DNA of 64,000 nt from Amphiscolops sp. MND2022 (Eukaryota), in the NCBI GenBank assembly GCA_964187785.1, contig OZ076409.1:32924001-32988000 (forward strand). The letters run 5' to 3'. A model generated the notes under the pieces. It saw nothing but the letters and a program-made list of their open reading frames with translations, searched no databases and was not told the origin of the DNA. Of the stretch, positions 1-56,254 are shown in pieces; position 1 is the stretch's first letter, and the number at the start of each line of letters is the position of its first letter. The translations under genes and the position numbers were made by a program.

Positions 1-134
1 ACGCATTTCGAGAAATTTGGGACATTGTGAAACAGTAAATTTTTTTAAGTCCACACCGAGACGAGCCTAGAGCTAACAGCGACTCGACAAATCCCGCGTT
101 CTTCGAGATTTCTTTAAAGGCTACGCCCGAATCG

Positions 135-6834: not shown

Positions 6835-6851
6835 CAGGAACCTCAGCATCC

Positions 6852-8561: not shown

Positions 8562-8823
8562 CCTTATCATTTTAGTTGTCCCCATTTTCCCTTTGCCCTC
8601 AGTCTTTGTAACAATTCTTGTAACAACCATGGAAGAGTCTTGAAATGCTCTCGAAATATTAATTTGTCATGCTGTTTACTCAAAGGTTTTGTTCTAGTTC
8701 GTTACTTAGTTAGAGTTAAATTTTAAGTTTGTAGTGGCCCCCTTACGGAGCCGATGTTGCATTGCTGCAATTGAGGGACGAACCGGCCCACGGCTCGCTC
8801 CAGAAAGAACTTGCCCCTGTAAG

Positions 8824-8844
8824 CCTAACAGTGGTCCTTTTTAG
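8824..8844 (+). promoter_or_regulatory. Candidate splice acceptor for a subgenomic mRNA of the extra ORFs
   Basis: CCTAAC branch-like motif (8824-8829), TCCTTTTT tract and AG (8843-8844), 13 nt before the ATG at 8857. Confidence 0.5.
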
Positions 8845-8856
8845 ACCTATGCATTA

Positions 8857-32700: not shown

Positions 32701-34806
32701 CACCGGACAATGCAGCAAATTGTTCATCCTCCTTCACGAAACAAGATGCGGAAATACGAATATTTGCATCAGGAGTAGAGCCGTCGAAGAACACAAGGAT
32801 ACAAAGTCTGACAAACTATCACAAGCGACTGTCTTGCTCCAAGTGGCCTGAGCATATGTCGACTCAACTGGAATAGTGACCCGGAACTGATTCCACAGTC
32901 GCCTCAAAAAACTGTGCGACCCACCACTACGAAGGAGCACGAAAAGACCACCCACAAGTGTCGCAGACGACACCAACTAAAGCATCCACTTGGTCTTCTT
33001 TGAATGGATTCTTCTTGCCCAGAACTACGGGCGGAGTGTGCTCAATCTCGGCACGCAATTCATCAGAAAAACTGGCAACTTTCACTTCTTCATACTGAGG
33101 GGTGTAAATTACATCTTCATGATCCAGCCTGTTTCGCCGATCTTTCAGATAGTGACTTTTGTGACTGAAGTGCCGCCAGATCTCGGGCTCAACACGACTC
33201 ACGAAAGAAATGACCTTTTGACATATTGTACAATTAAACCCATTTGGGTTCTTTTCCTACCTCTGGCTGACAAATAACTGGGTGATTGCATGCCCAGCCA
33301 TCTCTCTACGTAACACATGTTGCTCAGTTTGTCTCCGTTTTCTTCGCTCATACTTCGCATACAGTCTACGTTTGGTCTTCTCCTCATCGCCCAACTGGCT
33401 GGACTCCCGATGCATATGTATGCCCTTCGACTTCAACAAACGTACTACTCCATCGAACTCTAAACAACAAACTCAAATGGAACCGAACAATAACAAATCA
33501 CAATGGACACACGTGAACACATGACAGGTACAACCACAGCAATCAGACAGAACTAACAGAAAACTTATAACTAGAAACAAAACAAAACAGAAACTTACGA
33601 CGCGACAAGGATGTCATCAACCCGAGATTGTGAACGCTCGAGACGCACAGCTGCCCGACAATATGCCAACACCTGACTTGATGACAGGCAGATTGCTCCA
33701 GAAGGCACATTGGACACACCAGCTAAACATAAAGAAGCAATGAAACCAAATGCACCCTGCCTTTGCATGAGTTGACAGACTGAGAACCAAGAATGATGAC
33801 AACAATGTGAATAAATCAAAAGAAAAATACCTTTGCCCCATTTTTTGTGCAACACACACTGCTCCAGACCCTCAGCAGGACGACCATCTTGGGTACGATC
33901 ACGCTTGACCTTCGAAACACTAGCCCCATCGTCAGCAAAAACATCTCGCGAGACACCGGGTGAATCACTGGGCAGAGGATCCAAAGCGTCGAACACATTC
34001 CCTTCTTGAAGTATGGGAGTCTGAAGTGCAATACAAATAGGGATGACAACGCAAGATTAGATATTCACTTACCATCAACAAACGAAATCCCTAACTTCAC
34101 CTCCTGCTTCCGAGAACAACTGCAAGCCCGGGGCTGTCATCTGAACTTGACACATTGGGCCGCACCTTCTTGGAAGACCCAACTGCAACAGACGACATCA
34201 GCCGTTTGCTGCTCCGAGTACCAATGGGGAGTACAGAATAACCAGGAGTAAAATCCTCGTCATTAGAGTCGTCATAGGATCCTGAAACCAATAAAGGTAG
34301 ATGAAATAACGCGTCTGTATACTAGCATCAAAACTGTTAACTGGCCATCAACAAATAGCTAAGTAACCCACCGTGTTGGTCTTGTAAAAATCCAAGTCAA
34401 GCCACGCATCACTCCCAGGAGAATGGTTGGACAAGGCATCGTCATCCAAAGGATCGTTAGCACCAACTCGGGAATCACCAATTGCTGCATCATCACAGTG
34501 GTCATCACTGCTGCCTGTATCATTCTCACCAAAGCCAGCTACTTTACGGGACGGTTGCAAGGCGCCTCGATCTGGCTGGCCATCGCCCAGCGTCGCAGTA
34601 TCATCACTCGCACTCTCTTGACGAATCTCAGCTCAGCTCTCCACTATTTGCAACTGACCTTCGGTCGCCCCACCATCCTTCCCACTCTCTTCGTCATTAT
34701 CCACATCAACCCCTCTCCCCACCAGAGGCTCACACTCACTCTCAATCACGCCAATTTCTTGAGACAGGGCAAAACGAGCAGCATCCTCGTCTGTCGAAAC
34801 TGTCAT
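29743..34806 (-). pseudogene. Antisense multi-exon gene of element B (acidic N-terminus, C2H2/BED-like finger, hAT-transposase-like body), disrupted and partly duplicated
   Basis: ATG at 34806; FNCTICQKVISFVSRVEPEIWRHFSHKSH near 33150-33240; 515 aa open C-terminal part 29743-31290. Candidate GT-AG introns at about 34282-34371, 34021-34072, 33724-33830 and 33460-33597. Confidence 0.65.
30835..33158. repeat. Tandem duplication of about 1.16 kb inside the antisense gene of element B
   Basis: 30835-31995 is repeated at 31996-33158, giving duplicated ORF translations such as GGHSLDPFAVLDFLILQFNK. Confidence 0.95.
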
Positions 34807-35087
34807 AAGTTAAGAGAACAATCTGAAATAATACCATCCAACGAAATAAAACCGAAGACGTGGCGTAAAACCAACGACAATACTACTATCAAATATTATG
34901 ATTATGAGATAATGGAATTCAGTCAGTCTGCTAGCTGAAAATTTTCCCAATCACGCAAGCGGCGTGAACAAATAAGAAAGGAATAGGATTATCAGTCAAT
35001 TATTCAGCTATTCCTCAAGCAGTCGCTTAGCATTACTTACAATTATTAATCGCATTTTCACAACAGCTTACTTTCATCGCCATTACA

Positions 35088-35679: not shown

Positions 35680-37818
35680 GGAGAGAAGCGAAGAAAGTGA
35701 CCAGAAAGAAACCGAAGAATGAGCAAATGAACCTGAAAGAACCAAACCAACAAACAACAATTAAAATACAAACAATTAAATAGTTACTTAAATAATATTA
35801 ATAACTTGACCACTGTGCAGTACCTAAAATACATAAATATGGAAATACTTAAATAATATTAACTGCAAATAGTGTGATTTGTTTACAGTAAAACGAACGG
35901 CGTGCTGATTGAAATTATTACTACCACCGCGCCGACCAGCGTACTGCCACTTTAACAGCGGAGCTAAATAAATCTATTTCCATTTTTTAAAATTAACCAA
36001 TCAGCGCTTTGCGCAAATTCATTTGCTAGCTGAGTGGCCTCCGCAGGCAGCTCACCAGTCAGCCGAAAACTGGGACGCACGCCCAGTCGCTCGATTAAAT
36101 TAACAATAATGATGCTAAAGATGATGAATATTTTTTACAATTCTAATGTAATCCCAACTTAAAAGAAGTTGAAATATGGGAAAACAAGTTCGGCAAGGAC
36201 AAAATATCCACCTATAACGTACTATCGATGCTAAAAATTGTATTTACTACTGCTACTTTAGAGTCAACCACCCAGGAAACCGATTAAACAGACAATTTTG
36301 AGTCTAAATCCCGGCTGTTGAATTTGTTAAATTATAGACTAAATACCCACCAATATCAGTACACGCAACCCTTTGTGAACCAAATTGACCCCGTGGAAAC
36401 TAAAACATGAAGAACAATGCAGAAATATGATGCAAATTTTATTTTTTAAATGTTAAGTGCGGACCACACTTATTCGAATTTGAGACAACACTCCAGTCTC
36501 TCAATTGGCGATTATGAATTGTCAATGTTCGTAAAACCCATAGGACTATTTAGCTCAAAGATGCGTGTAATTTTCATTCAACGGTGCAATTTTGTCTTTT
36601 CCCGCATGTGTCAACCTATTTATTATGCCAATATTTGTTAATCATTCCATTCGGAGTGAAGTTTGTTCATGCAATTTGAGTCAACGTCCTGGTCAACCGC
36701 TCAATCAACCTAGAGTAAAACGTGCTACCAGGGGTGTGACCAGAATAACTAATCGTTTATTTCACGCTAAATACTATTGATGAGCATTATTTTTTGACGT
36801 TTAATTGGAAAATTTACTTATATCGTATTTTGTTATTTTTGCCGTTGAATTGCATTTTATTTTGATGTAAAGTTTGTTTCTTTTCCCGCGTTAGTAGCTA
36901 GATTTATAAATCTTACTTGCCAACTTCATTCTCGGCGTCACTAATTGGCGGGGAATGGGCGGGGAATGAGGAAGAAGGGAGGCGAAATTGGAACTTCGGC
37001 ATGAAATTGATTCCCACTTTTCCTAAAGTGGGATGACATCGAGAGCCGAAGTCCGAAGAAGCTTACCTAATTCGGAAATTCCTCGCCTCGGAAGGACGCC
37101 GGGCTGAACGAGGTGTGAGTTCACGCGCGGCGGGACTCATCCCGCGTGTCTAGCGAAAAGTATGAATAACTAAGGCGGGTTGAGAAAAGGGCAGGTGAAA
37201 GTTTGAATTGATGTAAGTACCTTAATTTGGAAGTGATCGTTCTAACTTGTTTCTTTGAACTATTTGTTGATACCTTTTGGAGATCAACTGATTAACTTGG
37301 ATCATATTAGAATCCAGCATTGTTTTTGTTTAATTCACTATTATTCCAACTAATTGTTCTCCTATTTTGCGAACTCATTCCCGAGAGACTATCCGAATAT
37401 CTTAATCTGAACCAAGTTCATCGAGTAATTCAAGTCTCGTCAGCTTTGAAATCCTTTTCCTCAATGCCTGAGAAATCCCAGAAGAGAAAGTTAAGGAGGG
37501 ACCCAGCAGAGGATTCAGACTTCGTAGAGAGTTCTAGTTCCCCAACTGACGGAAATAACTGCATTTCAGGGCGGGATTTTGAAGAGATTACTAGCAAAGT
37601 TGAAAAAAAGGTCAAAACGTTTGAGAGATACTGAACATTGTCAAAGAGAAATACTCAAGTTGATTGAAAATATATCTGCCAAGGTGGATAAATTGACTAA
37701 TTCAGCATCATTAAACCCAGGTTGTTCGAGTTCCAGGACTGAGATTCACGAAAATCTACAAGACGTTTGAACCTCAGAATACGTTGATATTTCCGAACAA
37801 AGAAATGTAAACTCCAAC
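35628..37818 (+). repeat. 3' LTR of element B
   Basis: TGTCACAG...ACTCCAAC, with the final A at 55509. It contains a block of roughly 110-120 bp near 37200-37310 that the 5' copies lack. Confidence 0.9.
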
Positions 37819-40129
37819 TGTCACAACCCGCTCCCTGCTTGGGATGCTCTTGCAGGCGAATGGGGATCCAAAGAGGGCATGGTTACAACCTTCGGTTCCC
37901 GAAATGGTAATAGAACTTTAAAATAGTATTCATTAACAAAAAAAAACTGTGACTAAAAACGCAAAATTTACGTCTACTCAACGGAATATTCATACGAACA
38001 TAGTTAGAAGACAAATAGACTGAAATGATTTTCCACGCATTTCCGGTAAGACGTTTCATTCACGTCAAAATAGTAACATTTGCCACCTGAAAACGAAATT
38101 AAAACACGTTTTAAAATGAAGAGATCATAAGCTAATCTAGATGAAAACATATCCAAAATCATCTCTAAAAAGGACATCAATCAGTTCTAAAATAGAAAAT
38201 ACCTTGCGATGGCACGCCGAGGAAATTAAACTTTTTCTACGGAAGTCAGCTCATTTACTCTTTGAACAGCAATTAGTGTGGTTTAGGACGACAATATTGC
38301 GTTGATGTAAACAAAGCGGCGTCAGAAATAAGAATACTTGTACATTTGTCGTCAGTAAGACGCAGGTAAGATTTGAAGGCATACGGATTGACGTCACTGC
38401 CTCGTCTATGCGCACTAAAGAATCATTCCATTTAACCACTTATACTAATGGCCTCAAAAGAAATCATTCCAATTTTCCGCCAATATGACGTCACAGTAAT
38501 GCTAGACAACTGATTTTAATTCCAAATTTACGTCCACGCTACGTCCACTGCAATGGTAGACTAAGGCTAATTCGTACGTCCACGTTACGTCCAAAATCCA
38601 TCAAAATAACCGTTTTGATCCAACTAGAAAGATGAAGTAACCGCTGTTTTAATGGTTCAAGTTTGGGAATGTCATGCAACCTTAGACTCAATCAAAATTG
38701 GGATAGAAAAAAAGACATTTGAGATATCGTCTAATTGCCGTCAAATAAAACTCCAATTCAAAAATTGTTATTAGGATTTAGTTTGAATGAAACTTTTCCG
38801 CATCATTTAAGATAGAAGTCACAGTTTATTCCAAAGAAAACTTCATAAAAATGTATTTCGTGGTAACCTATGTAAACTCCTGGCGCTATCTCACATAAAC
38901 AAACGTCCGCTTGACGTCCTAAAGATTTTCAATGTTCTGATATATTGAAAATGAAGCCATATTTTGATAATGATGTACTTGTATTGTAATTATATTTATC
39001 GCTTGGAATACAATTTATCGCTTGGAATTGCTGTTAACGTTTAATGTTCTGTTAAAGTTGACTCAATTTGACGTTGTTAATACGTCTGACCATGTTTGTG
39101 CCTATTTAAAATAGGGCTATGTGAGCTAATTTATTTAATTAAAGTACAATTAACGGAAGCCTGATTCCTTTTTGTTCTATTAGCATCATCAAATTGCCCA
39201 ATTCAGGACAACTAGTCATAATTTCTCAAGTTGAAATTGAAAATCAGGTATTAGTTGTTCACGCCAGCGTCATCTCCGCGTCAATTTTCCTACGTACAAA
39301 AGCGGAAAAAAAGAAACACTTCCGGTTCGACAGACTGAAGAATTGTCTACTTCCTGCTTGGGAGGAAGCAAAACGTAGCCGGAATGAAATGATATGATCA
39401 TGGTTGATGATTAATACTTGATTAAAATTGTCGTGTCTTAAAATTTGACAAAATGTCGACGCAAATTTGGGGTAGTAATGATTTTTTCATCGATGAAAGA
39501 GGAAATGACTAATTGTTCGAGGAAAATTAGGGATTTTAATCGTGATCAAATGATGCTGGGAGGGTAAATATACGGTACAATTTAAGGGACTCCTAATTAA
39601 TGATTAAGGGACTCCTAATTAAGTTTTTCCTAATTGTAGAAACCAGTTGCTATCTAACTCGTTTGTCTCAATTTCAATCTTATTCAACTCTGTTGAAAAA
39701 ACCTCAAAAGAACGAATTGAATTCAATCTGAATCAAATCTCTCTTCATCAAAGTGTCGACTAAAAGGAGCCAAAAGAGAAGAAACAATCAACAAGAGGCT
39801 ATTGAAAGTGTAAGTGAAGGTTTTGTTTAACCAGATGTAGTGGAGAATTCTTGTCCTCTAGACCAGGACATAAGCATGGTGTGACCATTTAGACCAAAAA
39901 CCCCCAGAATAGAAGGTAGTCTCTTAGGAGGAAATTACTTCTGAGATTGCGAATCTCCTTGTAGAGTCTCAGAGGGAAATGCTAAGACTTCTTGAACCTG
40001 AAAGAAGAGAAAATGTAAGGGAAAACACCGAAGAAGAAACAGAGAAGGAAACTAGGAGCTTCTACACTCCTACAAAATCTGTTAGAATTAATTCTACCCA
40101 AAACAACGATACGAATGTAAGTCGTAACA
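37819..40129 (+). repeat. 5' LTR of element C (about 2.31 kb)
   Basis: TGTCACAACC...GTCGTAACA; homologous to 53171-55503; CCAAT plus TGACGTCA at 38480-38493. Confidence 0.92.
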
Positions 40130-41180
40130 TGATGACAGGAGTCCTAACCGACTTCACAAATCACCCAAAAATAAGGTCTCAGAGCCAACCAGCGTCAAAA
40201 GAGAGTCCTGCGGTAGCTAAAACAGCTAGAACTCCGCGCTACCTATGCCAAAAAGCCCTAACGGCATCACTCCCAACATTTGACGGTAAAACTGAAAACG
40301 TCGAACTCTTCGAAGATCTTTTCCGCAACAACATCAAAATGTACCCGCATCTCACGGAACTTCAAAAAATCAACTATTTGCACTACTTACTACGAGGAGA
40401 CGCCCTACAAGCGTTGTGCAACATGGAGGATGCAAAAAAGAATCCTTAGAGGAAATAATGACAATTTTTAAACGTCGTTTTGGCGACTACTTATCAATGG
40501 CAATAGCCAGATGCGAATGGGACGCACTCAGATTCGATCCTTCAAAGCAAAACTACACGAACTTTTGGACACTCTCCAAAAAACCGCTGAGGAGGCCTTC
40601 GGGTCAGAAGCGCAACAATTCATTGACAAGGCTATATATGCCAAGATGCCCGACCACGTCAAGAAGATATTACACAGGGCATACCTCGAAGATAAACCGT
40701 ACAGCGGCATCGTACTACACCTAGAAAGAGAAATGCGACTCAATGGCCTTGGGGCACCAGATGAGGTCAACTTGGTCACTCTAAATAAAATAGAACTTGC
40801 CCAAATAAAACCTGAGAACAAACCAGCTGACAATACCACACAAAATACCACTCAAAATACTAAAACAGGATAGTGCTTCTACTGCAATAAATTTGGCCAT
40901 TTCAAAGCCGAAAAATGAGAAGAGGCAAATGACAACAGACACGGAAAAACAGCGGCTAAACCAAAAATAGTGCAGGCACCACGCTTAAATGTGATACTTG
41001 TGGCAAACCTCACAAAACGGAAGATTGTTGGAATGGAGCCAACTCGGCAAATGACCCGAGACCTAAGCGACACTTCCAATGAGAAAGGAACACGGATACT
41101 TCCGCCCAACAATTGACAGTCAAATTCGGAGACGAATCAAAAAACTACTTACGCCGCGCCTGCGCTTCGGGGAAACAGTA
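39752..41180 (+). pseudogene. gag: gag of element C (starts inside the LTR), disrupted
   Basis: LPTFDGKTENVELFEDLF, LEREMRLNGL, knuckles CFYCNKFGH and CDTCGKPHKTEDC. The intact start MSTTRSQKRR is visible in the 3' LTR copy near 55109. Confidence 0.85.
40130..40142 (+). other. Primer-binding site of element C, tRNA-Leu-like
   Basis: TGATGACAGGAGT directly after the LTR, similar to element B's PBS. Confidence 0.6.
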
Positions 41181-44100
41181 GACGCGAGGGCGTAATCAAC
41201 AGAAGAAACCCCCACTACATATGCAAATGACACAACAAAAGAATACAACGGTACACCAACAGAAGATTGGCTGAGACGACAAGGACTCGCCTCAATAAGA
41301 AGACCACTCACACAACCAAAAAAAGAGGAATTCTACGCCCAAGATAAAGACTATAGAGGCGACCATACACATCACGCAAGTCGTATCGTCCAGCACCCTT
41401 GCCCTATCAAAGAACAATCCGTTGCAATACAAATAGAACAAAACGAAAACGCCCCTGACGACCAACCATCGTCACAATCAACAGAGGAAGATATATACGG
41501 CTCCCACAAGAAACCTATCTTCACAAATGATTTCTCCACCTCGCACAATTCAATCAAGGAGTACGTGAACCGAAAAAGATTGAAGCACTTAGATACCGTT
41601 AAACTCAACAATAACGCTCAAAAAACGACGACGGATGCTCTATCTACCACTTGAGTTCGGCGAAACCACAATGGACAGACTTGTTGACTCAGGAGCGTTC
41701 ATCAACGCAATGTCATGGTCAGATTACAACGCAATCAAATTGAACAGTGATAACTGCATCATAAAGGAGTATACCCGGCCTCTTTTCAAAATTGAATGTG
41801 CAAACGCCCAACTATAGCAACCAATAGCCACCGTCGATATACAATTCAACATAGGGACGTACACATTCACAGACACCTTCGTCATCCTCTCGAACACGTC
41901 TGTCCCAATAATAGGGCTGAACGTCGTGAGAAATCACCAAGCGGTACTAGATACGGCAAACGGTACCATCAACTTCCCGCACGTCGAAGTGACGTTGGCC
42001 ATGACAGACGAATTGAAAAACTGTAATCCGAAAACACTCCAAATAATGGCAGAGGGAAACCAGACGATACCGCCACAACAAACAACAACAGTCAGTGCAA
42101 TAGTGATCGCTACAAACATAAATGACGTCACTGGGACGGTACAGCCATCGCCGCAATTCGACGAGACAGCTACCATCATCGTTGCACCAGCGTTGGCGAC
42201 AGCCCACAACAAGAGAATCAATATACGAATAGCCAATCTGACGGATTTCCCACATACAATAAAAACCACACCAATTTGGCAGAGTTACAAATCCTCAAAC
42301 CTGAAGAAACAAAGCAAATACGACCCATTGACGCTGCCGCACTCAAACTACTACAAGACCCTGATGATACATGTATGTGAACGAGCTCATGAAATCCAAC
42401 AAAAATGAACAAAACAGTGAAAATTTCTGGTTCCCTACACCCGAGAACCCAAGAAATGAGGATGAACACACACCAATACAACGACGAATTTTAAAGTAAA
42501 TCCGTGAGCTCATCAAAACGAGGGAATTTGATCCGACAAAAGATCAGGAATCAAGCAAGCAATTCCTTGACATGTTCCAATGGGAAGGATCACAAATCGA
42601 AGGAAACGATAAAAAACAGCTCGAAGAAACGATAATCGTATACAACGACATCTTTGCACGTCACCGATTTGACATCGGCATCAACAGTAACTTCAAAGTG
42701 AAACTAACCCCGAAAAACGAACGTCCAATCTACACACAAAGTCTGCCCGTACCAATAAATCTGAAAGTAGATCTAACAGTCGAATTGGCACTAATTCACA
42801 GATACGGCATAATAACGACTCTGTCATTTTCAAAATACGCAAGCCCAATTTCGCACAACGAAAACCAAATGACAAATTACGTCTACTCGTCGACCTCCGA
42901 AAAATCAATGCACTAATATCAGACGACTACATAAACAACAACCACCCAGTTAGCACATTGTCACACGCAGCTCAACACCTAGCTGGGAAGAAACCTTTTT
43001 GTAAATTATACTGCTCCCAGGCAAACCACTGCCTGCAAATGGCAGACCAGAGATCAATCGAAATGCTAGCTTTCAACTTCGCAAGCAGGACGTTTGCCTA
43101 CAAACGCTTAGCACAAGGACTGAGCAGAGCTTTATCAGCATTTTCGAGCTTCATGAGAGAGTATTTGGATAAAGTAATTAAAGCCGACCAGTGCGCGCAA
43201 CATATGGATGACATTGGAATAGCTGCCAATTTGGTGATGCAACTGATATGAAACATCCGAGCTGCCTTCGAATGCATCAGACAAGCAAGACTCAAACTAT
43301 CCATCGACAAATGCCATTTTGGAGTAACTGAGGTCGAATTCCTTGGAAGAACGATCACCCCACAAAGAATCGCCCAGGATATGCGCTAATGATAGAAGAA
43401 GAAAATGACAAAAAACTCAATTCCAAAAAGAAAACTTTCGCCCCCGTAGCATTCGGATCAAAAGTATTCTCACCAGCTCAACTGAAGATGTCAAATTATT
43501 GCAAAGAAATTCTGGCAATTTACAATGCTTTTCTAGAACACAGCCATATCTTGTGGGAAACAACCCTCGTGATGACCGACAATAGATGGGTAACAAGGTT
43601 TTTCCAAACAAAAGCGATAACCCCTACACTATGGAATGCATGTGATTACGTGCTGCAATTCATTTTTCACATCATCCACGTAGCCGGAACGCAAAATACA
43701 GCAGCTGATTTTCTATCAAGGATTGACCTCAATCCTAAAGAAAGGGTTGAACTGAAGATCAAAAATGACATCACAATTCAACCAATCCAAGTAAATCTGC
43801 AGTCTACAGATGTCGCAGATGAAGAACAACTTTTCTTCCTTCCAAATGAAACAATTGAAACTGAAGAAGAAATCCTCTTTAAGAAAGAACAAGCCAGACA
43901 AGCTGCGCGCGTCGGAGTGACGACAAAGATAAAAATGGCCATACAAGAAACCACCCCAATTCCGATAAACAAGGCATCATACACTCTTGGGGCAATAAAA
44001 GAAGACGCGCGTATCAGAGTAGAAAAGATTCAGACCTAGTCTTCGAAACATTCAAAAAAAACTGATATGCGAAGAACATGACAAACACCTCCTACAAACT

Positions 44101-45760
44101 GACCCGACAGCCAAACGTTTATTAGTCCATGAAAATAGACTGATAGTCAAAGACGGAATCCTAATGCGCAAATACTACGGAGAATGCGGACAAGTCACAC
44201 ATCACCAAATATTAATTCCCGAACACATGATCACAGAACTTCTAAAAGCCATCCATGGACAAAAGGGAAAACACCCAGGGATCACAAAAGTGATCCAGGA
44301 ATGCAGATCAAAATATTATTACCCCGGTTTAGCAAAAAGAATCAAACAGTGGGTAATGCAATGCGAGGACTGCATAAAATACAAAAGAATCAACTCTAGC
44401 CAAGTCCGACCGAAAATGATCAACAATACAGAACACGTCTTGTTGACATAACCGAAATCGACATACTGCCGAGTCTACCAAATTCTGCAGGATACCAGAA
44501 CATCGGCACAATGATTGATGTATTCTCGCGTTATCTAATCGCATATCCAACACAGAATGCCACAGCACGTACAATCGGACGATGCATTGTCGATGCCATG
44601 ATTAGACATGCATACTTACCAGCATTAATCCTATCAGATAAAGGCTCTCAATTCAGATCAGAAGTCGTCGCAGAAATAACGCAAAAACTCGAAATCCAAA
44701 TCAGCCACGCGTCTACGAAACATGCACAAAAGATTGGAGTTTTGAAAAGGACACAAGCTTCAATCAAAACTGCACTAAAAATATCGACAAGTGAAAGATG
44801 CTCAATGTGGCATAATTACGTCCAAATCGCAGTCATGAACTATAACACAACATACCTTGAAACTTTGGGGTGTGAACCTTTCACAGTATCCCATGGACGC
44901 ATACCCTACAATGTTCTCGACCTAAAATTAGGCATCAAGCCAAAGTGGAAAACTACGCCTAATTCAGACATAGCAGAGCAACTACAAAAACAGTTCGATG
45001 AAGTGCGAGCGACAGAAAAGGACAATATCATGCTGTCATACCTCAAATACAAAAAATACTACGACCGCAAGGCGTTGGCAGCTCCGCTCAAAATAAAAGA
45101 TTACTGCTACATCCTTAATCCGAAAGCCGACAACCAATCGATCGACAAAATTTGCTTTCCGAAATTGCATCTGGACAGGACCGTACATAGTAATAAAAGT
45201 CCTATCAAATAACAAATATACGATACAAAAAATTGGCACGCGATACACATAGACGCTACATAGAATCCGCATACGACTTTACGTGCCAGAACAACGTATG
45301 CTTGACGTCACAGTACGAGCAAACGAATATCTTCCTGATCCAGACGTCAAGGTGTCGCACAACGAGTGGTACGCAGTATCGTGGCAAATGGATTTTGGAA
45401 AACAGATCGACAAACACGAGACGCCAGCAAGTGCGGAAAAAAATCAAAAAAAGAAAAGAAGTGATAAACACACATAACGAAACTACGACGCAGCAAGTAC
45501 CAAGAAATCAGACTGAGGACACAAATGACGCCGCGCCGTCGTCCCCGGCGTTTTCAAATCTTACTACAGACACGGGGGATAATCCATACATACGACGCCC
45601 CCAACCCATTGAAAGAGTCCAAATATTCCCCCATGATCACCGCCTACAACTGTCGGATATAACCCGAGGAAAATAGCAAAGAATAACTTGAGACCTAATC
45701 CTAAACCTAATGCTAATCCTGATTTCAGACGACTTGACGCTGTGACTACGACTCAATAAA
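41139..45760 (+). pseudogene. pol: pol of element C, disrupted, with an internal deletion at the RT/RNase H junction
   Basis: LVDSGA (PR); RLAQGLSRALSAFSSFMREYLD, QHMDD (RT); MTDNR, AADFLSR (RNase H); HGQKGKHPG...CEDC, SDKGSQF (IN). Confidence 0.92.
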
Positions 45761-45979
45761 AAGATACTATCAGGGGTCCAGACCGAACCGATCTGACTAC
45801 TTAAATTACAGGCATACTACGGCCCCAACTTCATTTTCTTTTATTTCCCAACCTACATACAAACACTCACGTTGGGATGTTCTCTTTTATCATTTTTTCT
45901 TCACTTGGACATATTTATCAAACACAATCAGATAAATAAATTACGGGAATTACAGCTACAATCTAATGTCTGCGGCATA

Positions 45980-48900
45980 TCAAACACAAAGTTCATCCAC
46001 TCTTGGATCCACCAAATGACTGACTCCTAGTGACTTTTGGACACTTCTGAACATCTTTCTGGGTACCTTTTGCAGGCTCATTAGCGGCACACTTTTTTGA
46101 AACACTTTTCTTCGCAGCTGATACGGACTTCTCTTTGCCAGATTTATCCTCCTTCCATTTCCCCAAAATAGCAGCAAGTCACGACTCAGCAGTTTCAGAG
46201 TCAGAACCAGATCTGGGCGAAGCAAGAGCAAATGAAGACATTGGCAACATAGCGGCACGAGGAGAATTGCAACTGGTAGAAGTACCAGAACCCCTGGAAT
46301 TCGAAAAGCGGACGTGTCGTGGTTCTCGATTTGCACTGTGCAGTTGTTTGGCAGCTTCACTCTTCCTATGACTCAAATAAGTATCGAAAGCCGCAGAGTA
46401 CGTCGCGACGAAAACAGAGCGATCACCACAAGACACACCTTCACACGGATCGAAAGTAGAGCACGACATAAATTCGCGACTACAGGCAATAGCGTCACGA
46501 ACACTTTACATTGTCACTCGTGTGAAGAATGCCCTCTGCTTGTAACACTGAGAGGACACAAGACTTTGGATGCCCCGCAGACACGACAACACAACGGAAG
46601 CAGGTACATAACAGTCTTTTAATCTCAATAACTGGTATCTTTTTCTGCGGCCGATCTACGACCAAACAACACACTTTCAAGACTTGAACCAGGCTCCTGC
46701 GCGACATAAAACTGTAGTTCGATAACAATAGGGCAATGACATCTTCAATTTCCTCTGCCCTGTCCAATTCGCGATGCCGGGTCCGAGCATCAACCACAAA
46801 AGTGGTGAACTCTTCAACACTAGCGCGAGCATCGGCACTAGACAGACAGCCACACCTTTCGAGCACACGAATCAAGCGGGAAAACAACCGGAAGACATGG
46901 TGATCGTCACCCTCGAAAAGCAATTCAGGACAGAAGCAGTAGAGTCCCTGGAAAAAATCAGAGGAAACACCCTGCTGGTTCAAAATGAGGTCCACTAAGC
47001 GATCTACAAACTCGCGACAACGGTTTCGGAACTCACAAGCCCCGCTGGTATTTGAAACATTGTAATTAATTTCCAAAATCGTGATTCGAGAGGAAATCAT
47101 CGGTGGAGATCTTTTCAAACGAATCCATTTCAGAAGGATCCATATACAACTAAAAATCGTTCAGCTGAGAAAGACCAGACAGGTTCCGACTTCGGACAGC
47201 AGACAATATACAAATTGGCACACTTCACTAGATGCATGGAAAAGATAATCGGCTCGACCAGACTTCTGCTTTTTGGAAGCGCAATGATCTAAACACAAAA
47301 GAAGGACTGCAACGAGTAACAAGACCATATCACATGGACGACAAGAGAGCGTCTCAAATGACCACATCATCCCATGCCATCAACTCAGACGTCACAATAA
47401 GCCAAAAATAAGAACATGAAAAAATAGAAAGTCAGAAACACAACTTATACAGATCAAGGACGTCGAGCAACATTCCCAAACGTAATTTGTTGGTCGTCTC
47501 CGAATGCACAAGAGAATCAGTACCTCGCATCTGGAACAACACACGCAAGATGACTACCTAACCGAACGATACGTTACAACAAACAGTGAGCAAACCACTG
47601 AAACCGAACTATACTCACCTTTTCAGATTCACACTTGATGTGACGAGGACCCGTGTAACGGACGTATTCGCGAACAGTTTCACAACTTGAAATGAGCTCA
47701 CCGACGACTCCACGAAGCTCTTCAAACGAAACTCTTCAAACGAAACTCTTCCAGTGATAACGCAATGACGAAGGTCTGGCAAGTCGTCCATCCGGGGCTG
47801 CTGCAAGGCCCCGCGAAGACGCAGCATCAAAAAATCCACCATAGTGGTGACTTCCAAGAGACCAAAGATTTCCTGATGAGCAATACGATAACAATGCAGG
47901 AATACTTCAGCCGTAAACTCTCGAGCATACACGAAACAATACCCGTCACTTCGTTCGTCGCTGAGCACCGGCTGCACTGACTGACTAATGCCACGAATAC
48001 TGACTGGCAGAAGAGAAGAAGGCAAACTGGTCACAACACGCGACAATGACGACAACTCTGGCTCTGGAATCCGTTGGCCGAGGGGTTCAACGTTCACACA
48101 AATCTCTAGCAGATCATTACCGTTCCACGTGCGCACAAAACAATTCTGCCCCTCTAGCTCCTCGAAACACACACTGTAGCAGCTGAAGGTAGTAATCCGC
48201 GAAAAGACAATCGTAGCACTCGGGGAAAATAAGGCACGGCAAATCAGCGACTAAAATACACACCCTTCGAATGCTTACACCATCAAACAACCAGATAAGG
48301 CAGAACAAAAGCGTACATAAAACACCATCACGATACAAGCTACTAACCAAAGTTTCTGGACGATTCCAATGAGGATTGTACAGGTGATTATCGGGCCCCA
48401 GGGTAGCGCGGAAGTTACCCCAGAGTTTACGAAGCAAGACGTAGCTGCTTCCCCACCTACACAACTCCGCAACACAATTTACCATGGTGAGAAGAGGAAC
48501 TGTTGAGTCGACACGAGTACAAGTGGACAGCAGGAGAACCTCGGGAAAACTGAACCCTTCGTCCTTCTCGACTGTTTCTTGGTTCATGTAACCATCACGT
48601 TGGTCAGGCGTCAATTCAAGTGCCTTCATCAATTGGTCGTAAACTGGCATAATGTGTTGAACTTTGTAAGCAACATCCCGCGACCAATGTCCTGTCAGCG
48701 CCATGATGCCGGGCAAACTCTCTTGATCCCCGTGACTGCATTGAAACATCACGCCAACATATCATACAATGGAAGCGCGACGATGATCCGTTACTGGCTC
48801 CACTGACGAACAATCTGAAGATCGGATGATCGCCCACCATGTCTCTTCGCAGATGATGCCGACTACTATATTTCTTTGGAGGTAAACCACACAATGCCGC

Positions 48901-50130
48901 AGCTTCCGAGCTGGTCTCCATACGGGACACGAGATCTTGCATACCTGCAATACGACACGACAACGGGTCACCACCAACAGGAAAACCCCAACAGCCTACT
49001 ATCATACGATCATCAAATGTGCAAAGCACAGAACACAACAATAATACTCACGGGATAGAACAGGGCCCACCGTGGCGCGAGCAACATCATCTGTTTCAGA
49101 GTCACTAAGTCCAGAAACTCCTTGCACAGCACAATCGGCAGAATCTACAAACCAAAGCAAATTAAACACACAATACCTTGTTCCACTCCCCTCCGGGAAC
49201 AGAAGAGAAAAAACAACAAAAGTTTGCTATTACCACTGACAGTCAGCTGGGCAACCTGCAAACTCGCCGTCTGGACGCGCAATTGACGTTTTTTCTTGCC
49301 AGAAGAACTCGGTTCAGGTTTTCCCAGGGCAGTTGACGCGACTATAACGTCAAAACAACATATCAACAACACCATACCCAGCTGATGAACAGGGGGATAA
49401 TGAGTCTATACAAGCAAAATTAGCTCTATTATTACCTCTCTTTTTTGACTGCGCCAACTCGGAACATGTCTTCCCAAAGCCAGGAATAAAGGAAGTGAAT
49501 CGAGGAGAGGAAACAGTCAGTCGAACAGTTTCTCCCGCTGGGTTCCTGCTTTCTGAAACTTTGTTCTCTCCAGTAGGGGGGATGCTGACTCACCTTCGTG
49601 AGCAGGACCAGACTCAACAGGGACATCATGAACAGACGAACCAACAAAGTGCTGCAACACTGATGCGTCAAGTCCCTCCTGCCTCGAAGGCGATGCAACA
49701 GGAGAACCAACACCAACAATGTCAGGAGGGAGAGACACCTCGGGGAGACACGCAGAATGGACGGGAGTGGTTGGCATAGTAACTGCAGGAGGATGTCCCC
49801 ATTCCAATTCAGGAAGACGAGGAGATGTCACTTTGGGCACTAAAAATCACATTCCCAACACCGACGCGTCAAGAAAATCTAAGCTGTGAAGATATAAACA
49901 TGGAAGAAGCCTCTCTGTGAAAGTATCATTCACAAAAGCTTAATGGATCTGGGAATAAAAAAAATTACCGGCCGCCCGCAAATAAAGGCCATCTCCGTCA
50001 CTCTGACGCACATCTCCTTCTGAGAACACGAACTGCGTCTCATGACCTCTCTGCGCTCCAGGATCAACCGATGGGGGAACAGCAGAGTGAGAATGTATCG
50101 AAGAACAGCAAAGAAATCTGAAAACAAAAG
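45980..50130 (-). pseudogene. Antisense multi-exon gene of element C, homologous to that of element B
   Basis: HHLRRDMVGDHPIFRLF...FHCMICWRDVSMQSRGSREFARH finger; C-terminal YCFCPELLFEGDDHHVFRLF...ASVEEF matches B's NCLSPDMVLQGDEQYTVSLF...ASNEF. Candidate introns 49879-49968, 49406-49435, 49342-49377, 49145-49176, 48945-49051 and 47558-47618. Confidence 0.68.
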
Positions 50131-50149
50131 CCGCAGATAAAGACAACAG

Positions 50150-50460
50150 CAGAAATGACGTCATCATCACGGTGACAAAACTTAAAGTTGGCCGATAACC
50201 AACGAAAATGTAGTCGGCATAACGTCGACAAAAAAGTTATCGAGATTAAAACATTAATCCTATTATCTATAATGACGTCATCATTACGGTGACAAAAATC
50301 AAAACTAGACGAAAGCTAGCGAAACTGACGACAGCATAACGTTGACAAAATTGGATAAGCGAGTTATTCAATTTGCAGCCAATGGAAATGCGACGTTGGC
50401 ATAACGTCAACACCTGAGGATTAAAAGGATTAAAAAGATTGATTAACCAATCAGAAAGGA
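50150..50460. promoter_or_regulatory. Candidate internal bidirectional promoter of element C
   Basis: Two TGACGTCA sites (50156-50163, 50273-50280) in an imperfect repeat of about 117 bp, plus two CCAAT boxes, lying between divergent ORFs. Confidence 0.45.
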
Positions 50461-50546
50461 AGGATTTATTCCAATATTCCCCCTAATCCTAAATATTCCT
50501 AAAATCATTGTGAAACAATCAACAGCATCAATCAGACGTCAAAGCA

Positions 50547-53500
50547 ACCCTGAAAAATGAACAGGCTGAAGAAAATTATTGAACTAATCGACATTTCGTC
50601 GGAGAGCGAAGAAGAAAGTGCCATAGAGAGCTTCCACCCCTCTTCCCAGAAACTCCCAAACTACAGAATCTCCCAGAAACTTACAGAATTATTTTGGAAA
50701 TTGCGAATTCGTCGGCTGAAGCTATTGCAGATGAAGAAGAGTACTTCGACGTTTCAGCAGATTCTCTAGAAATGAATTGCAAAAAGATGAGATTAAACTC
50801 AACGTTCGAGTCACTGGAGTCGGAGAACTACCTAGTACTTCCCCCGAAACAACGCACAATGAAATCAGAGAGAGCCTCGAGATCCCGGACCTGCTTACGG
50901 ACGAGGAGGAAGGGTTCGTGGTTGAGAGCCACAGAGTACCGAGCAACCCAGTCAAAAACAAGTTGTATGATAGCCGAATATCTGGAGCAGGTCCACAGGG
51001 AGGAAGTTGGAGCTTCTCTTTTCGAAACCCCTCCAGGCACACACCGGAGCATGGTTTCCGTCCTATAAGCACACTGAACGATCTTGAAAAAGAAGCCGAC
51101 ACTACAAGCGCAGCGAGCACCATAATGGAGATGCCCCCATTAACACTCATGCCCAATCTACCCGGGAGAAGTGATTTCCCCAGAGGAGTGGCCCTGACAC
51201 AACCCGTTCCTGCTTGGGATGCTCTTGCAGGCGAGTGGGGATCGGAAGAGGGCATGGTTGCAACCTGCGGTTCTCGAAATGGTAATAGAACATTAAACTA
51301 GTATTCATTACCAAAATAAACTGTGACTAAAAACGCAAAATATACGTCTACTCAACGGAATATTCAAACGAAGTTAGTTAGAAGACAAATAGACTAAAAT
51401 GATTTTTCACGCAATTCTGGTAAGACGTTTCAGCCACGTCAAAATAGTAACATTCGCCACCTGAAAACCAAATTGAAACACGTTATGAAATAAATAGATC
51501 ATAAGCTAATCTAAATGAAAACATATCCAAAATCATCTCTAAAATGAACATCAATCAGATCTAAAATAGAAAATACATTGAGATGGCACGCCGAGGAAAT
51601 TAGGCCATTTCTAAAAAAGAAAGCTTAATTACTCTTTGAACAGCAATTAGTGTGGTTTAGGACGATCATATTGCGTTAAGTAAACAAGGCGGCGGCAGAA
51701 ACAAGAATACATGTACATTTGTCGTCAGTAAGACGCAGATAAGATTTGAAGGCATACGGATTTACGTCTTTGCCTCGTCTTTGCCCACTAGAAAATCATT
51801 CCAATCAACCGCCTATACTAATGGCCTCATTAGAAATCATTCCAATTTTCCGCCAATATGACGTCACAGCAATGCTAGACAACTGATTTTCATTCCAAAT
51901 TTACGTCCACGCTACGTCCACTGCATTGGTAGACTAAGGCTAATACTAATACGTACGTCCACGTTACGTCCAAAATCCATCAAAATACCCGTTTTGATCC
52001 AACTAGAAAGATGAAGTAAACGCTGTTTTAATGGTTCAAGTTTGGGAATGTCGAGCAATCTCAGACTCAACCAAAATTGGGATAGAAAAAAAAGACATTT
52101 GAGATATCGTCTAATTGCCCTCAAATAAATCTCCAATTTAAATATTGTTATTGGGATTTTGTTTGAATGAAACTTTTCCGCATCATTTAAGATAGAAGTC
52201 ACAGTTTAATCCAAAGAAAACTTCATAAAAGTGTGTTTCGTGGTAACCTATGAAAGCTCTTGGCGCTATCTCACATAAACAAACGTCGGCTTGACGTCCT
52301 AAAGAATTTCAATGTTCTGATATTTTGAAAATGAAGCCATATTTTGATAATGATGTACTTGTATTGTAATTATATTTTACAATTTTACTTTATTTTGTAT
52401 ATACTACATTTTGTAATTATATCATTTTGATATGCCATTTTGATATCTAATGCTGTTCTGATTTTAACCAAGTATATTATCGCTTGGAATTGCTGTTAAC
52501 GTTCAATGTTCTGTCAAAGTTGACCCTGAAAAATGAACAGGCTGAAGAAAGTATATGAACTAATCGACATTTCGTCGGAGAGCGAAGAAGAAAGTGTCAT
52601 AGAGAGCTTCCACCCCTCTTCCCCGAAACTCCCAAACTACAGAATCTCCCAGAAACTTACAGAATTATTTTGGAAATTGCGAATTCGTCGGCTGAAGCTA
52701 CTGCAGATGAATAAGAGTACTTCGACGTTTCAGCAGATTCTCTAGAAATGAATTGCAAAAAGATGAGATTAAACTCAACGTTCGAGTCACCGGAGTCGGG
52801 AGAACTACCTAGAACTTCCCCTGAAACAACGCACAATGAAATCAGAGAGAGCCCCGAGATCCCCGACCAGCTGACGGACAATGAGGAAGGGTTCGTGGTT
52901 GAGAGCCACAGAGTACCGAGCTCCCAGTCAATAACAAGTTGTATGATAGCCGAATATCTGGAGCAGGTCCACAGGGAGGAAGATGGAGCTTCTCTTTTCG
53001 AAACCCCCCAGGCACCCCCAGGAAAATAGTTTTCCGTCCTATAAGCCCACTGAACGATCTTGAAAAAGAAGCCGACACTACAAGCGCAGCGAGCACCATA
53101 ATGGAGATGCCCCCATTAACAGTCATGCCCAATCTACCCGGGAGAAGTGATTTCCCCAGAGGAGTGGCCCTGTCACAACCCGCTCCCGGCTTGGGATGCT
53201 CTTGCAGGCGAGTGGGGATCGGAAGAGAGCATGGTTGCAACCTGAGGTTCTCGAAATGGTAATAGAACATTAAGCTAGTATTCATTAACAAAATAAACCG
53301 TGACTAAAAACGCAAAATATACGTCTACTCAACGGAATATTCAAACGAAGTTAGTTAGAAGACAAATAGACAAAAATGATTTTTCACGCAATTCCGGTAA
53401 GACGTTTCAGCCACGTCAAAATAGTAACATTCGCCACCTGAAAACCAAATTGGAACACGTTTTGAAATAAACAGATCATAAGCTAATCTAAATGAAAACA

Positions 53501-54437
53501 TATCCAAAATCATCTCTAAAATGAACATCAATCAGATCTAAAATAGGAAATACATTGAGATGACACGCCGAGGAAATTAGGTCATTTCTAAAAAAGACAG
53601 CTTATATACTCTTTGAACAGCAATTAGTGTGGTTTAGGACAATCATATTGCGTTAAGTAAACAAGACGACGGCAGAAACAAGAATACATGTACATTTGTC
53701 GTCAGTAAGACGCAGATAAGATTTGAAGGCATACGGATTTACGTCACCGCCTCGTCTATGCCCACTAGAGAATCATTCCAATCAACCGCCTATACTAATG
53801 GCCTCATTAGAAATCATTCCAATTTTCCGCCAAAATGACGTCACAGCAATGCTAGACAACTGATTTTCATTCCAAATTTACGTCCACGCTACGTCCACTG
53901 CATTGGTAGACTAAGGCTAATACTAATACGTACGTCCACGTTACGTCCAAAATCCATCAAAACAACCGTTTTGATCCAACTAGAATGATGGAGTAAACGC
54001 TGATTCAATGGTTCAAGTTTGGGAAGGTCATGCAACCTTAGATTCAATCAAAATTAGGATAGAAGAAAAGACATTTGAGATATCGTCTATCTGCCGTCAA
54101 ATAAATCTCCAATTTAAACATTGTTATTAGGATTTAGTTTGAATGAAACTTTTCCGCATCATTTAAGATAGAAGTCACAGTTTATTCCAAAGAACACTTC
54201 AGAAAAATGTATTTCGTGATAACCTGTTTAAGCTCGTGGCGCTATCTCATATGAACAAACGTCGGCTTGATGTCCTAAAGAATTTCAATGTTCTGATATT
54301 TTGAAAATGAAGCCATATTTTTATAATGATATACTTCTATCATTTTGATATGCCCTTATCTAATGCTGTTCTGATTTTAACCAAGTTTATTATCGTTTGG
54401 AATTGCTGTTAACGTTTGATGTTCTGTTAAAGTTGAC
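50547..54437. repeat. Tandem duplication of about 1.98 kb (sense ORF plus first part of the 3' LTR of element C)
   Basis: 50547-52522 is repeated from 52523. A partial LTR copy starts at 51195 (TGACAC). Confidence 0.93.
50557..51301 (+). pseudogene. Acidic S/E/P-rich sense ORF reading into the LTR, copy 1 (copy 2 at 52533-53270), frameshifted
   Basis: MNRLKKIIELIDISSESEEES...GVALTQPVPAWDALAGEWGSEEG, crossing the LTR boundary at 51195 and 53171. Confidence 0.55.
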
Positions 54438-55503
54438 TTAATTTGACGTTGTTAATACGTCTGACCATGTTTGTGCCTATTTAAAGTAGGGACTATGTGA
54501 GCTAATTTATTTAATTAAAGTACAATTAAGGGAAGTCTGATTCCCTTTTGTTCTCTTAGCATCATCAAATTGCCCAAATCAGGATAATTAGTCATAATTT
54601 CTCAAGTTGAAATTCAAAATCAGGTATTAGTTAGTCACGCCAGCGTCATCTCCGCGTCAATTTTCCTACGAACCAAAGAAGAAAAATAGGGAAACACTTC
54701 CGGTTTGACAGACTGAAGTAATATCTACTTCCTGCCTGGGAGGAAGCAAAAGGACGCCGGAATGAAATGATATGATCATGGTTGATGACTAATACTAGAT
54801 AAAAATTGTCGTGTCTTAAAATTTGACAAAATGTTGACGCAAATTTGGGGTAGTAATAATTTTTTCATCAATGAAACAGGAATCGACTAATTGTTCGAGG
54901 AAAATTAGGGATTTTAATCGTGATCAAATGATGCTGGAAGGGTATAAGTACAGTACAATTTGATGATTAAGGGACTCAGTCTTTCCTTATTGTAGAAACC
55001 AGTCCCTATCTAACGCGTTTGTCTCAATTTCAATCTTATTCAAGTCTCTTGTAAAAACCTCAAAAGCACGAGTTGAATTCAATCTGAATCAAATCTCTCT
55101 TCATCAAAATGTCGACTACAAGGAGCCAAAAGAGAAGAAACAATCAACAAGAGGCCATTGAAAGTGTAAGGTTTTGCTTCACCAGTTGTAGTGGAGAATT
55201 CTTGTCCTCTAGACCAGGACGTAAGCATGGCGGGACCATTCAGACCAAAATCCCCAAGAATTGAAGGTAGTCTCTTAGAAAACCTTAGAGCTTCTTTGAA
55301 AGAGGAAATTACTTCTGAGAATAAGAATCTCCTTGTAGAGTCTCAGAGGGAAATGCTAAGACTTCTTAAACCTGAAACAAGAGAAAATGTTAGGTAAAAC
55401 ACCGAAGAAGAAACAGAGAATGAAACTAGGGGCTTCTACACTCCTACAAAATCTGTTAGAATTAATTCTATCCTAAACAACGATACGAATGTAAGTCGTA
55501 CCA
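53171..55503 (+). repeat. 3' LTR of element C
   Basis: TGTCACAACC...GTCGTACCA, followed by the TSD CCAAC. Confidence 0.92.
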
Positions 55504-56254
55504 CCAACACCTCTACACTACCTTGCACTGAACGAGAGCCCGAAAATGTTTAACTGATGTTGCTCGAAAAACAACTGATTTGCGAAATTCAAGCCTGGTA
55601 AAAGGTTGATCATTCGCCGAAATTTGATCATTCGTCAGACCTCAAAACTCGACTCAAATTGAGCCTGTTTCATATGTCTTGAATTACTCCTCAAATGCAA
55701 AAAGTAACTCTGGTTTTCCAGAATAGATACCTTTACCAACTGTCAAAACAAACAAACAAAACGAAGAATGAATACTTTTATACGGGCACAACATTTTGGA
55801 AAGAACTTTACCCTCTCAGAACAACCTGTCGATAAACATGAATAATAAGAAAGTAACTTACGAAACGATAAAGCTTAAATTAAAGTCCTATTTCCAAAAT
55901 AAGTTCGAACCTGAACAAGACAGTGCAGAATTTGGAATGAAATGACTTCGTCTATATGAGCATCTGAGCTGTCCAATAGAAATTCTGCTTTGCTGAGCGA
56001 ATGAAAAAGGTCATTTCAAAATTTTCGCAATTCTGAGACGCACCTAAATGTTCAAGCTCAATCTGTTTTTGTCGGCACCTTTTCCCTAAAGGAAAAAAGC
56101 CCGACTATCACAGTGGGTAGTTTTCTTCAGCTGACAATCTCACTCTGAATGGTCCACTTTTCTTACAATTCTTACAATCTTACATTTTCTCAATTTCTTG
56201 CAATTCTTACTTAGCTTACGAAGTAGTATTTTTACATCATCTAAGAAACTCAAT

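Follow-up and report, generated by a model that had tools for sequence, protein, structure and literature searches.

A predicted seven-intron antisense gene in a Gypsy retrotransposon of Amphiscolops sp. and the conserved structure of its first intron

Introduction

How can a retrotransposon carry a gene that is interrupted by introns, and are some of those introns really as short as 30-36 nucleotides (nt)? Both questions are raised by a stretch of 64,000 nt from Amphiscolops sp. MND2022 (contig OZ076409.1, positions 32,924,001 to 32,988,000, forward strand; hereafter the window), in which the minus strand of a decayed Gypsy/Ty3 long terminal repeat (LTR) retrotransposon had been read, from the letters of the window, as a spliced passenger gene in a host able to remove very short introns. 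The first question has a general answer. The genomic RNA that is copied is the opposite (plus) strand, and the spliceosome is blind to introns that lie antisense to it, so they are retained through reverse transcription; the original prediction argued in this way, in agreement with established knowledge. As to the second question, comparison of many copies of the element leads us to conclude that the very short introns fall, that animal Gypsy elements probably do carry an antisense accessory gene with several introns, and that its structured first intron is the part that is new and worth following.

Results

An antisense gene of eight exons

The explanation that we consider probable, taken as a whole, is that the minus strand between the integrase gene and the 3′ LTR holds a gene of eight exons and seven introns (Table 1), the first of them likely gated, whose splicing we infer from the conservation of its signals. 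A DNA search of the host genome (1.07 Gb) gave 960 candidate copies, 40 of which were scored; 30 were taken from the scored list, three from the older subfamily of the window copy and 27 from a younger subfamily, and as three of the 30 are truncated or deleted, the gaps there were counted as misses. The dinucleotides at the 14 splice sites of the model are kept in 27-30 of the 30 copies, and removal of the segments between these conserved GT..AG ends restores a selected frame, as for U2-type introns. The coding frame runs uninterrupted for 1094-1102 codons in three of the 30 copies and for 1054 in a fourth, and exons 1 and 3-7 keep their frame length in 20-24 of the 24 full young copies. Six LTR pairs of the younger copies differ by only 10-29 substitutions each. 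The window copy itself is decayed: it has no start codon, its frame is broken in exons 2, 5, 6 and 8, and its last donor is mutated.

The ratio of nonsynonymous to synonymous substitutions (dN/dS) is 0.11-0.16 between subfamilies, somewhat looser in exons 1 and 2 (0.3-0.5), and 0.86 between the window copy and its closest decayed sister, from which we conclude that selection maintains the gene in active lineages and that copies decay once they have inserted. Conservation across the 30 copies, together with this purifying selection, supports the original view of a true multi-exon antisense passenger gene.

Two further features deserve mention in their own right. An acceptor-like site, TTTTCAG, lies at 50118 (minus strand), 20 nt upstream of the start codon, in 30/30 copies and in distant families; no donor to match it was identified, and it may mark the end of an intron in the 5′ untranslated region (UTR) or a trans-splicing site. 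In one young subfamily the run of C under the conserved GGE-x-PP motif of exon 2 (window 49570-49600, minus strand, and also in young copies) varies freely in length, its frame being intact in 9 of 23 parsable young copies; assembly indels look rare (four in six LTR pairs), and the interrupted C-run of a sister family is stable in 9/9 loci. An alternative intron across this run was considered, and by eye no conserved in-frame acceptor for it was found.

The proposed micro-introns

Six GT-AG segments had been proposed as introns: 49968-49879, 49435-49406, 49377-49342, 49176-49145, 49051-48945 and 47618-47558 (90, 30, 36, 32, 107 and 61 nt, respectively). All six are present in the window, and the frame beginning VEQDSADCAVQ is open there as claimed, but only 49051-48945 is correct at both ends. 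For 49968-49879 the donor holds (29/30 copies); its AG at 49879 is present in 30/30 copies, yet its use leaves a broken frame or a stop in 31 of 31 sequences, whereas the AG at 49840 (30/30) preserves the frame and is the acceptor of intron 1 in our model. For 47618-47558 the donor is likewise sound and the acceptor is placed 27 nt too early, since the extra length that comes with AG 47558 (24/30) breaks the frame in 27 of 29 copies while AG 47531 fits. Two introns, 48347-48251 and 47448-47289, had been overlooked altogether.

The segments of 30, 32 and 36 nt are best regarded as mis-calls. The inner AG at 49406 and the inner GT at 49377 each occur in one of the 30 copies, the closest one in both cases, whereas the outer sites of the pair are conserved (GT 49435 in 29/30, AG 49342 in 30/30); the 28-nt micro-exon between the two segments shifts the frame so that the conserved exon 3 runs into a stop, and a single intron of 94 nt yields the conserved peptide. 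The 32-nt segment ends in a genuine acceptor (AG 49145, 30/30), but its donor, GT 49176, is present in three of 30 copies, and it is the tail of an 89-nt intron that starts at GT 49233. If the donor at 49176 is used, the extra length is 57 nt in the window and, in the three copies where this GT recurs, 58, 41 and 37 nt, all three out of frame. No segment of this size class thus has both ends conserved and keeps the frame on removal. Applied in full, including to copies without its splice sites, the earlier intron model meets a stop within codons 53-102 in 29 of 31 sequences and no later than codon 210 in the remaining two, mainly because of its first acceptor. Each of the seven introns of the corrected model contains 3-9 inner GTA or GTG and 1-4 inner YAG, so short GT..AG windows arise by chance, which explains the mis-calls.

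A small sample of host introns points to no class of very short introns either: 28 estimated introns of the host CCT genes measure 220-10,551 nt, and two of 41 CCT matches carry 11 and 19 extra residues. One CCT copy without introns has 98-99% protein identity to an intron-containing copy (L080 and L079) and is likely a retrocopy.

Distribution across families

The gene lies antisense to the integrase gene in all 46 loci in which both fall within the fetched stretch (60 loci were examined). In most copies its place is between pol and the 3′ LTR in antisense orientation, the arrangement of the class termed aORF-3R, an antisense open reading frame (ORF) class. Conserved introns measure 70-161 nt in the closer families, and ten loci of three further families have well-anchored introns of 69-178 nt plus one of 347 nt. 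Of 20 loci in families near 40% protein identity, seven were checked for intron 1, which measures 110-113 nt there; introns 5-7 of these families, where they score well, have 70-185 nt, and for distant families the figures cover the junctions that could be resolved. Both position and phase of introns 5-7 are retained in families with as little as about 40% protein identity. A 33-nt hit at junction 1 in two loci of other families was rejected, because it scored 57 and failed the anchors, and the sister locus reads as a 128-nt intron.

A more distant homologue is carried by a neighbouring Gypsy element (window 29746-34940, minus strand), whose class is about 23% identical in protein. In its family the gene has four introns, which by eye measure about 75-140 nt, and ends in a single exon of about 860-900 codons, from which we conclude that introns 5-7 were gained or lost between the classes. 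An apparent 52-nt intron in this element was rejected, its inner GT not being kept in the three relatives shown, with the mis-oriented row L129 set aside.

A conserved structure in intron 1

Between subfamilies in which synonymous sites are saturated, intron 1 is still 73-83% identical, compared with 48-66% for introns 2-7 and 44-53% for shuffles. In its predicted fold, a basal stem close to the splice sites leads to a 5-bp stem, then a 4-by-1 loop, another 5-bp stem and an apical hairpin with GGCC (a loop that has changed in the window copy); a short linker separates the hairpin from GACGCGTC. Double changes were seen in seven of 22 pairs among 20 sequences, more than in any of 500 shuffles and more than in slid controls. 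A pattern built on the motif has 412 genomic matches, the class of the neighbouring element included, against five for a reversed control. A third class keeps the same register with other letters, its motif being intact in 15 of 20 loci, with a single change in one, while one locus is without the region; the pattern for this class has 513 genomic matches against none for controls. The structured intron spans about 110-130 nt, with at least 900 genomic matches to the two patterns.

By our reading of the alignments, both partners have changed in eight of ten core stem pairs when class A is compared with class C. The donor is predicted to be paired in all three classes; the clearest case is class C, in which its partner is the beginning of exon 2, each pair being present in 31-35 of 36 sequences. 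A TGAC stands about 30 nt upstream of the acceptor, where the consensus would place a branch point. The motifs are self-complementary: the apical loop contains GGCC or TGATCA, and GACGCGTC adjoins it. When a model was built from class A only and run on 149 kb, six non-self matches had an E of up to 1, and five of these fall on intron 1 of other classes. Rfam 15 had no match to the intron at any family's gathering threshold.

The predicted protein

The predicted protein starts with a disordered Ser/Pro-rich part and a basic stretch. A zinc finger follows (C-x2-C-x16-H-x5-H, found in 26 of 31 sequences), then a mixed region, and the end is helical. The relatives found are unnamed proteins without a Pfam domain; the exon-8 profile matched 911 representatives. 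The finger had no match to Pfam BED and drew generic C2H2 and BED hits at 0.81-0.85 in the feature atlas, and no match to the TRP28 domain (PF04195) was found among 46 proteins or in the exon frames.

Whether the gene descends from a hAT transposase is, in our estimate, an evenly balanced matter. With hAT-derived proteins of the ZBED, FAM200 and EPM2AIP1 type it shares an N-terminal CCHH finger, the atlas gave hits to DUF4371, FAM200 and DUF659 clusters at 0.79-0.82 (under the tool's 0.9 mark), and, by eye, a strand-strand-strand-helix pattern resembles the core of those proteins. It differs from them in that HMM (hidden Markov model), profile-profile and fold searches of the antisense protein were blank, the fold search covering exon 8 and not the putative core: hmmsearch, and hhalign to 55 frames from hAT loci of this genome, gave no match to an RNase H-like core or hATC, and the protein profiles found nothing in PDB or Pfam. 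The fold of exon 8 from a single sequence was unusable (predicted local distance difference test, pLDDT, of 39); an alignment-based model reached a pLDDT of 77 and had no Foldseek match at E 0.001 (best Z 4.5). Hermes at rank 42 in that search (Z 3.9, 53 residues) carries little meaning. DUF4371 was not found in the genome by a search whose control was also silent, and a weak search for the spliced full-length protein among longer database proteins found none.

The element and its other features

The element is assigned to Ty3/Gypsy by a TG..CA LTR pair (37819-40129 and 53171-55503, 91.7% identical over aligned bases), a 5-bp target duplication, CCAAC, at 37814-37818 and 55504-55508, and the order reverse transcriptase (RT), RNase H, integrase in pol by Pfam. 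Upstream of the antisense gene, a spacer with CRE-like (cAMP response element-like) TGACGTCA repeats and CCAAT-like boxes separates it from a divergent sense accessory ORF. The sense product is acidic, has 232-236 amino acids (aa) in six young copies (for example L047:1729-2436, minus strand), reaches about 100 nt into the 3′ LTR and has no Pfam match; with a dN/dS of about 0.15-0.33 it is under purifying selection. These motifs and the divergent ORF under selection make it likely that the spacer functions as an internal bidirectional promoter.

Table 1. Coordinates of the antisense gene and associated features in the window.
Feature	Position	Strand	Remarks
Intron 1 of homologous antisense gene, neighbouring Gypsy element	34282..34371	-	same GGCC loop; GACGCGTC with one base changed
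Gypsy/Ty3 LTR retrotransposon, decayed	37819..55503	+	LTR pair, target duplication
gag and pol remnants (DUF1759, RT, RNase H, integrase), fragmented	39928..45209	+	Pfam
Exon 8, helical domain and basic Ser-rich tail	45993..47288	-	broken in window copy
Intron 7, 160 nt	47289..47448	-	GT 27/30, AG 27/30; donor mutated in window copy
Exon 7, 82 nt	47449..47530	-	dN/dS 0.03-0.11
Intron 6, 88 nt, phase 0	47531..47618	-	GT 27/30, AG 28/30
Exon 6	47619..48250	-	
Intron 5, 97 nt, phase 0	48251..48347	-	GT 30/30, AG 27/30
Exon 5, C-x2-C-x16-H-x5-H zinc-finger motif from 48768	48348..48944	-	dN/dS 0.06; frame broken in window copy
Intron 4, 107 nt	48945..49051	-	GT 29/30, AG 29/30
Exon 4, 93 nt	49052..49144	-	
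Intron 3, 89 nt	49145..49233	-	donor GT 27/30
Exon 3, 108 nt, basic KKKR stretch	49234..49341	-	
Intron 2, 94 nt	49342..49435	-	
Exon 2, Ser/Pro-rich, fast evolving, GGE-x-PP motif over C-run	49436..49839	-	frame broken in window copy
Intron 1, 129 nt, phase 1, conserved stem-loop	49840..49968	-	
GACGCGTC palindrome	49870-49863	-	within intron 1
Intron-1 stems	~49942-49929 and 49890-49880	-	
Exon 1 (coding)	49969..50098	-	window copy without the start codon present in relatives shown
Spacer between two divergent genes	50100..50560	.	repeated TGACGTCA (50280, 50163), CCAAT-like boxes
Sense accessory ORF remnant	50583..51298	+	runs into 3′ LTR

Elsewhere in the element, the gag frame begins within the LTR and crosses the LTR end and the primer site (window 39760-40130), and no purine-rich tract is evident upstream of the 3′ LTR. 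Tandem duplications of about 1.98 kb (50538-52524 / 52513-54437) and, in the neighbouring element, about 1.16 kb (30835-31994 / 31996-33158) were noted, as were tandem LTRs at 17977-22826. A GC-richer Gypsy element (window 39-13112, plus strand) has three long unnamed ORFs of 580, 500 and 976 codons after pol, for which no Pfam match was found.

Discussion

The mechanism that we propose begins with the putative internal promoter, which would drive the antisense gene; the host would splice the transcript into an mRNA for a nuclear zinc-finger protein of about 1100 aa, and this protein may help the element in trans. The fold in intron 1 would pair the 5′ splice site and cover the likely branch point, TGAC, and a factor bound to it, possibly the gene's own product, might switch the splicing of intron 1 and with it the dose of the protein. 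This splicing switch is the part of the explanation of which we are least sure, and we put it a little short of an even chance; we favour it because the limits of the fold match the intron, the donor is paired in all three classes and TGAC lies near the acceptor. Put more broadly, the intron may hold an uncatalogued RNA switch, with covariation across families at 23-40% protein identity, that serves as a splicing gate of the regulator or, on the other strand, as a dimerisation signal of the genome, or possibly as both; this we hold tentatively, at somewhat below even.

A number of observations weigh against the gene as modelled and against its structured intron. Exon 2 is in frame in only seven of the 24 young copies and exon 8 in 14. 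The shuffle control behind the covariation ignores relatedness, and the structure was chosen from the same sequences. The class A model finds classes B and C weakly (E 0.008-0.38) and misses several loci, one family has the antisense gene without the intron-1 motif (three of 20 loci), folding z-scores are weak (+1.5 to -2.4, class A scoring better on the genomic strand), and wobble counts point both ways as to the strand, as class A leans to the genomic strand (A-C 10, G-U 5), class B to the intron strand (G-U 5, A-C 1) and class C to neither (3:3). Finally, most stem positions are invariant within a class, which is compatible with DNA-binding sites as well.

Could the gene nevertheless be something else? 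That the window's own subfamily truly used micro-introns of 30-36 nt is hardly credible to us: the inner sites do exist in the window, in the closest copy and, by eye, in one partial copy of 85% identity, and with the 32-nt segment removed the window does have an open frame. Against this, the inner sites of the 30/36-nt pair are absent from 29 of the 30 aligned copies, the micro-exon destroys the frame that is conserved, removal of the 32-nt segment fails to keep the frame in each of the three copies where its GT recurs, and the sampled host introns are of at least 220 nt. It is also very improbable that a host gene or a DNA transposon landed in the element and is decaying there, rather than serving as a selected accessory gene. 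Introns and a zinc finger do hint at an origin outside retroelements, and the window copy is broken, yet dN/dS is low across subfamilies, place and orientation are the same in every testable locus of distant families, and no inverted repeats were found in the window at the settings used.

The more serious competition concerns what intron 1 does. With the gene model unchanged, its structure may act on the sense genomic RNA as a signal for dimerisation, packaging or export, the antisense intron being a non-coding slot that houses the signal; this would help to explain why intron 1 is never lost, and we regard it as a real possibility, if one clearly below even. The self-complementary apical-loop motifs and the adjoining GACGCGTC favour such a signal, and the wobble counts and z-scores of class A lean the same way, but the fold has its limits just where the splice sites and the likely branch point lie, the class B wobbles lean to the intron strand and one family does without the motif. 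Alternatively, the conserved letters could be binding sites at the level of DNA, for an enhancer of the divergent promoter or for the zinc-finger protein, with the hairpin incidental. Palindromes are typical of dimeric DNA-binding sites, the CRE-like TGACGTCA repeats lie 300-400 bp away and the folding energies are unremarkable; however, the stem letters are entirely different from class to class and yet still pair, with the loop in the same register, and as a DNA site would keep its sequence, we consider this unlikely. Precedents for a signal in the genomic RNA are the Ty1 dimerisation palindromes and the MusD export element (PMC6844567, PMC5767303), although the Ty1 palindromes lie in the 5′ UTR and not near the 3′ end.

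If the splicing switch that we favour is correct, the structured intron offers a small and defined handle on how an LTR element times its antisense regulator; if the genomic strand is the one that matters, it offers the same handle on how a genomic-RNA signal hides inside a gene of the opposite strand. The family without the motif (L229, L230 and L236) is a natural contrast for the function of intron 1. In the part of the literature covered, we found nothing on an intron-containing antisense gene in animal Gypsy elements and nothing on the intron-1 fold.

How does the locus compare with known systems? The parallel drawn by the original prediction with HTLV-1 HBZ holds in that both are antisense genes of LTR retroelements, spliced (here, likely so) and with a likely regulatory product, and fails in the place of the start: HBZ, a basic leucine zipper (bZIP) protein, starts and mostly initiates translation in the 3′ LTR (PMC1459196), whereas the start codon here is found about 1.1 kb further in, the gene and the sense ORF standing back to back, and there are eight coding exons; no relation was found. 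Ty1 RNA dimerises via the palindromes PAL1/PAL2 (PMC6844567) and the MusD transport element acts in RNA export and forms a kissing interaction (PMC5767303), both being cis-elements of LTR-retrotransposon genomic RNA that are, like the intron-1 fold, structured and self-complementary; the structure described here differs in lying inside an antisense intron, has no Rfam match and may act on either strand. For the structured first intron of yeast RPL7B, binding and regulation have been shown, which makes it a tested model (PMC12311795), but that is a host ribosomal-protein gene, and binding and regulation are proposed here by analogy. Close counterparts are also found in plant Ty3/Gypsy elements, which carry additional antisense ORFs between pol and the 3′ LTR (Grande gene23, RIRE2 and Retand TRP28) that are described without introns and with their function called unknown (PMC7264820, PMC11963269; the word "intron" occurs 0 times in the main text of either). 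The differences are an animal-like host, seven introns, about 1100 aa and a structured first intron. By its position the predicted antisense gene is grouped with these plant ORFs, yet without the TRP28 domain and with introns, and it shares with them the antisense orientation, the presence in most copies, an internal promoter of its own (shown for Grande, predicted here) and a predicted nuclear, DNA-binding role.

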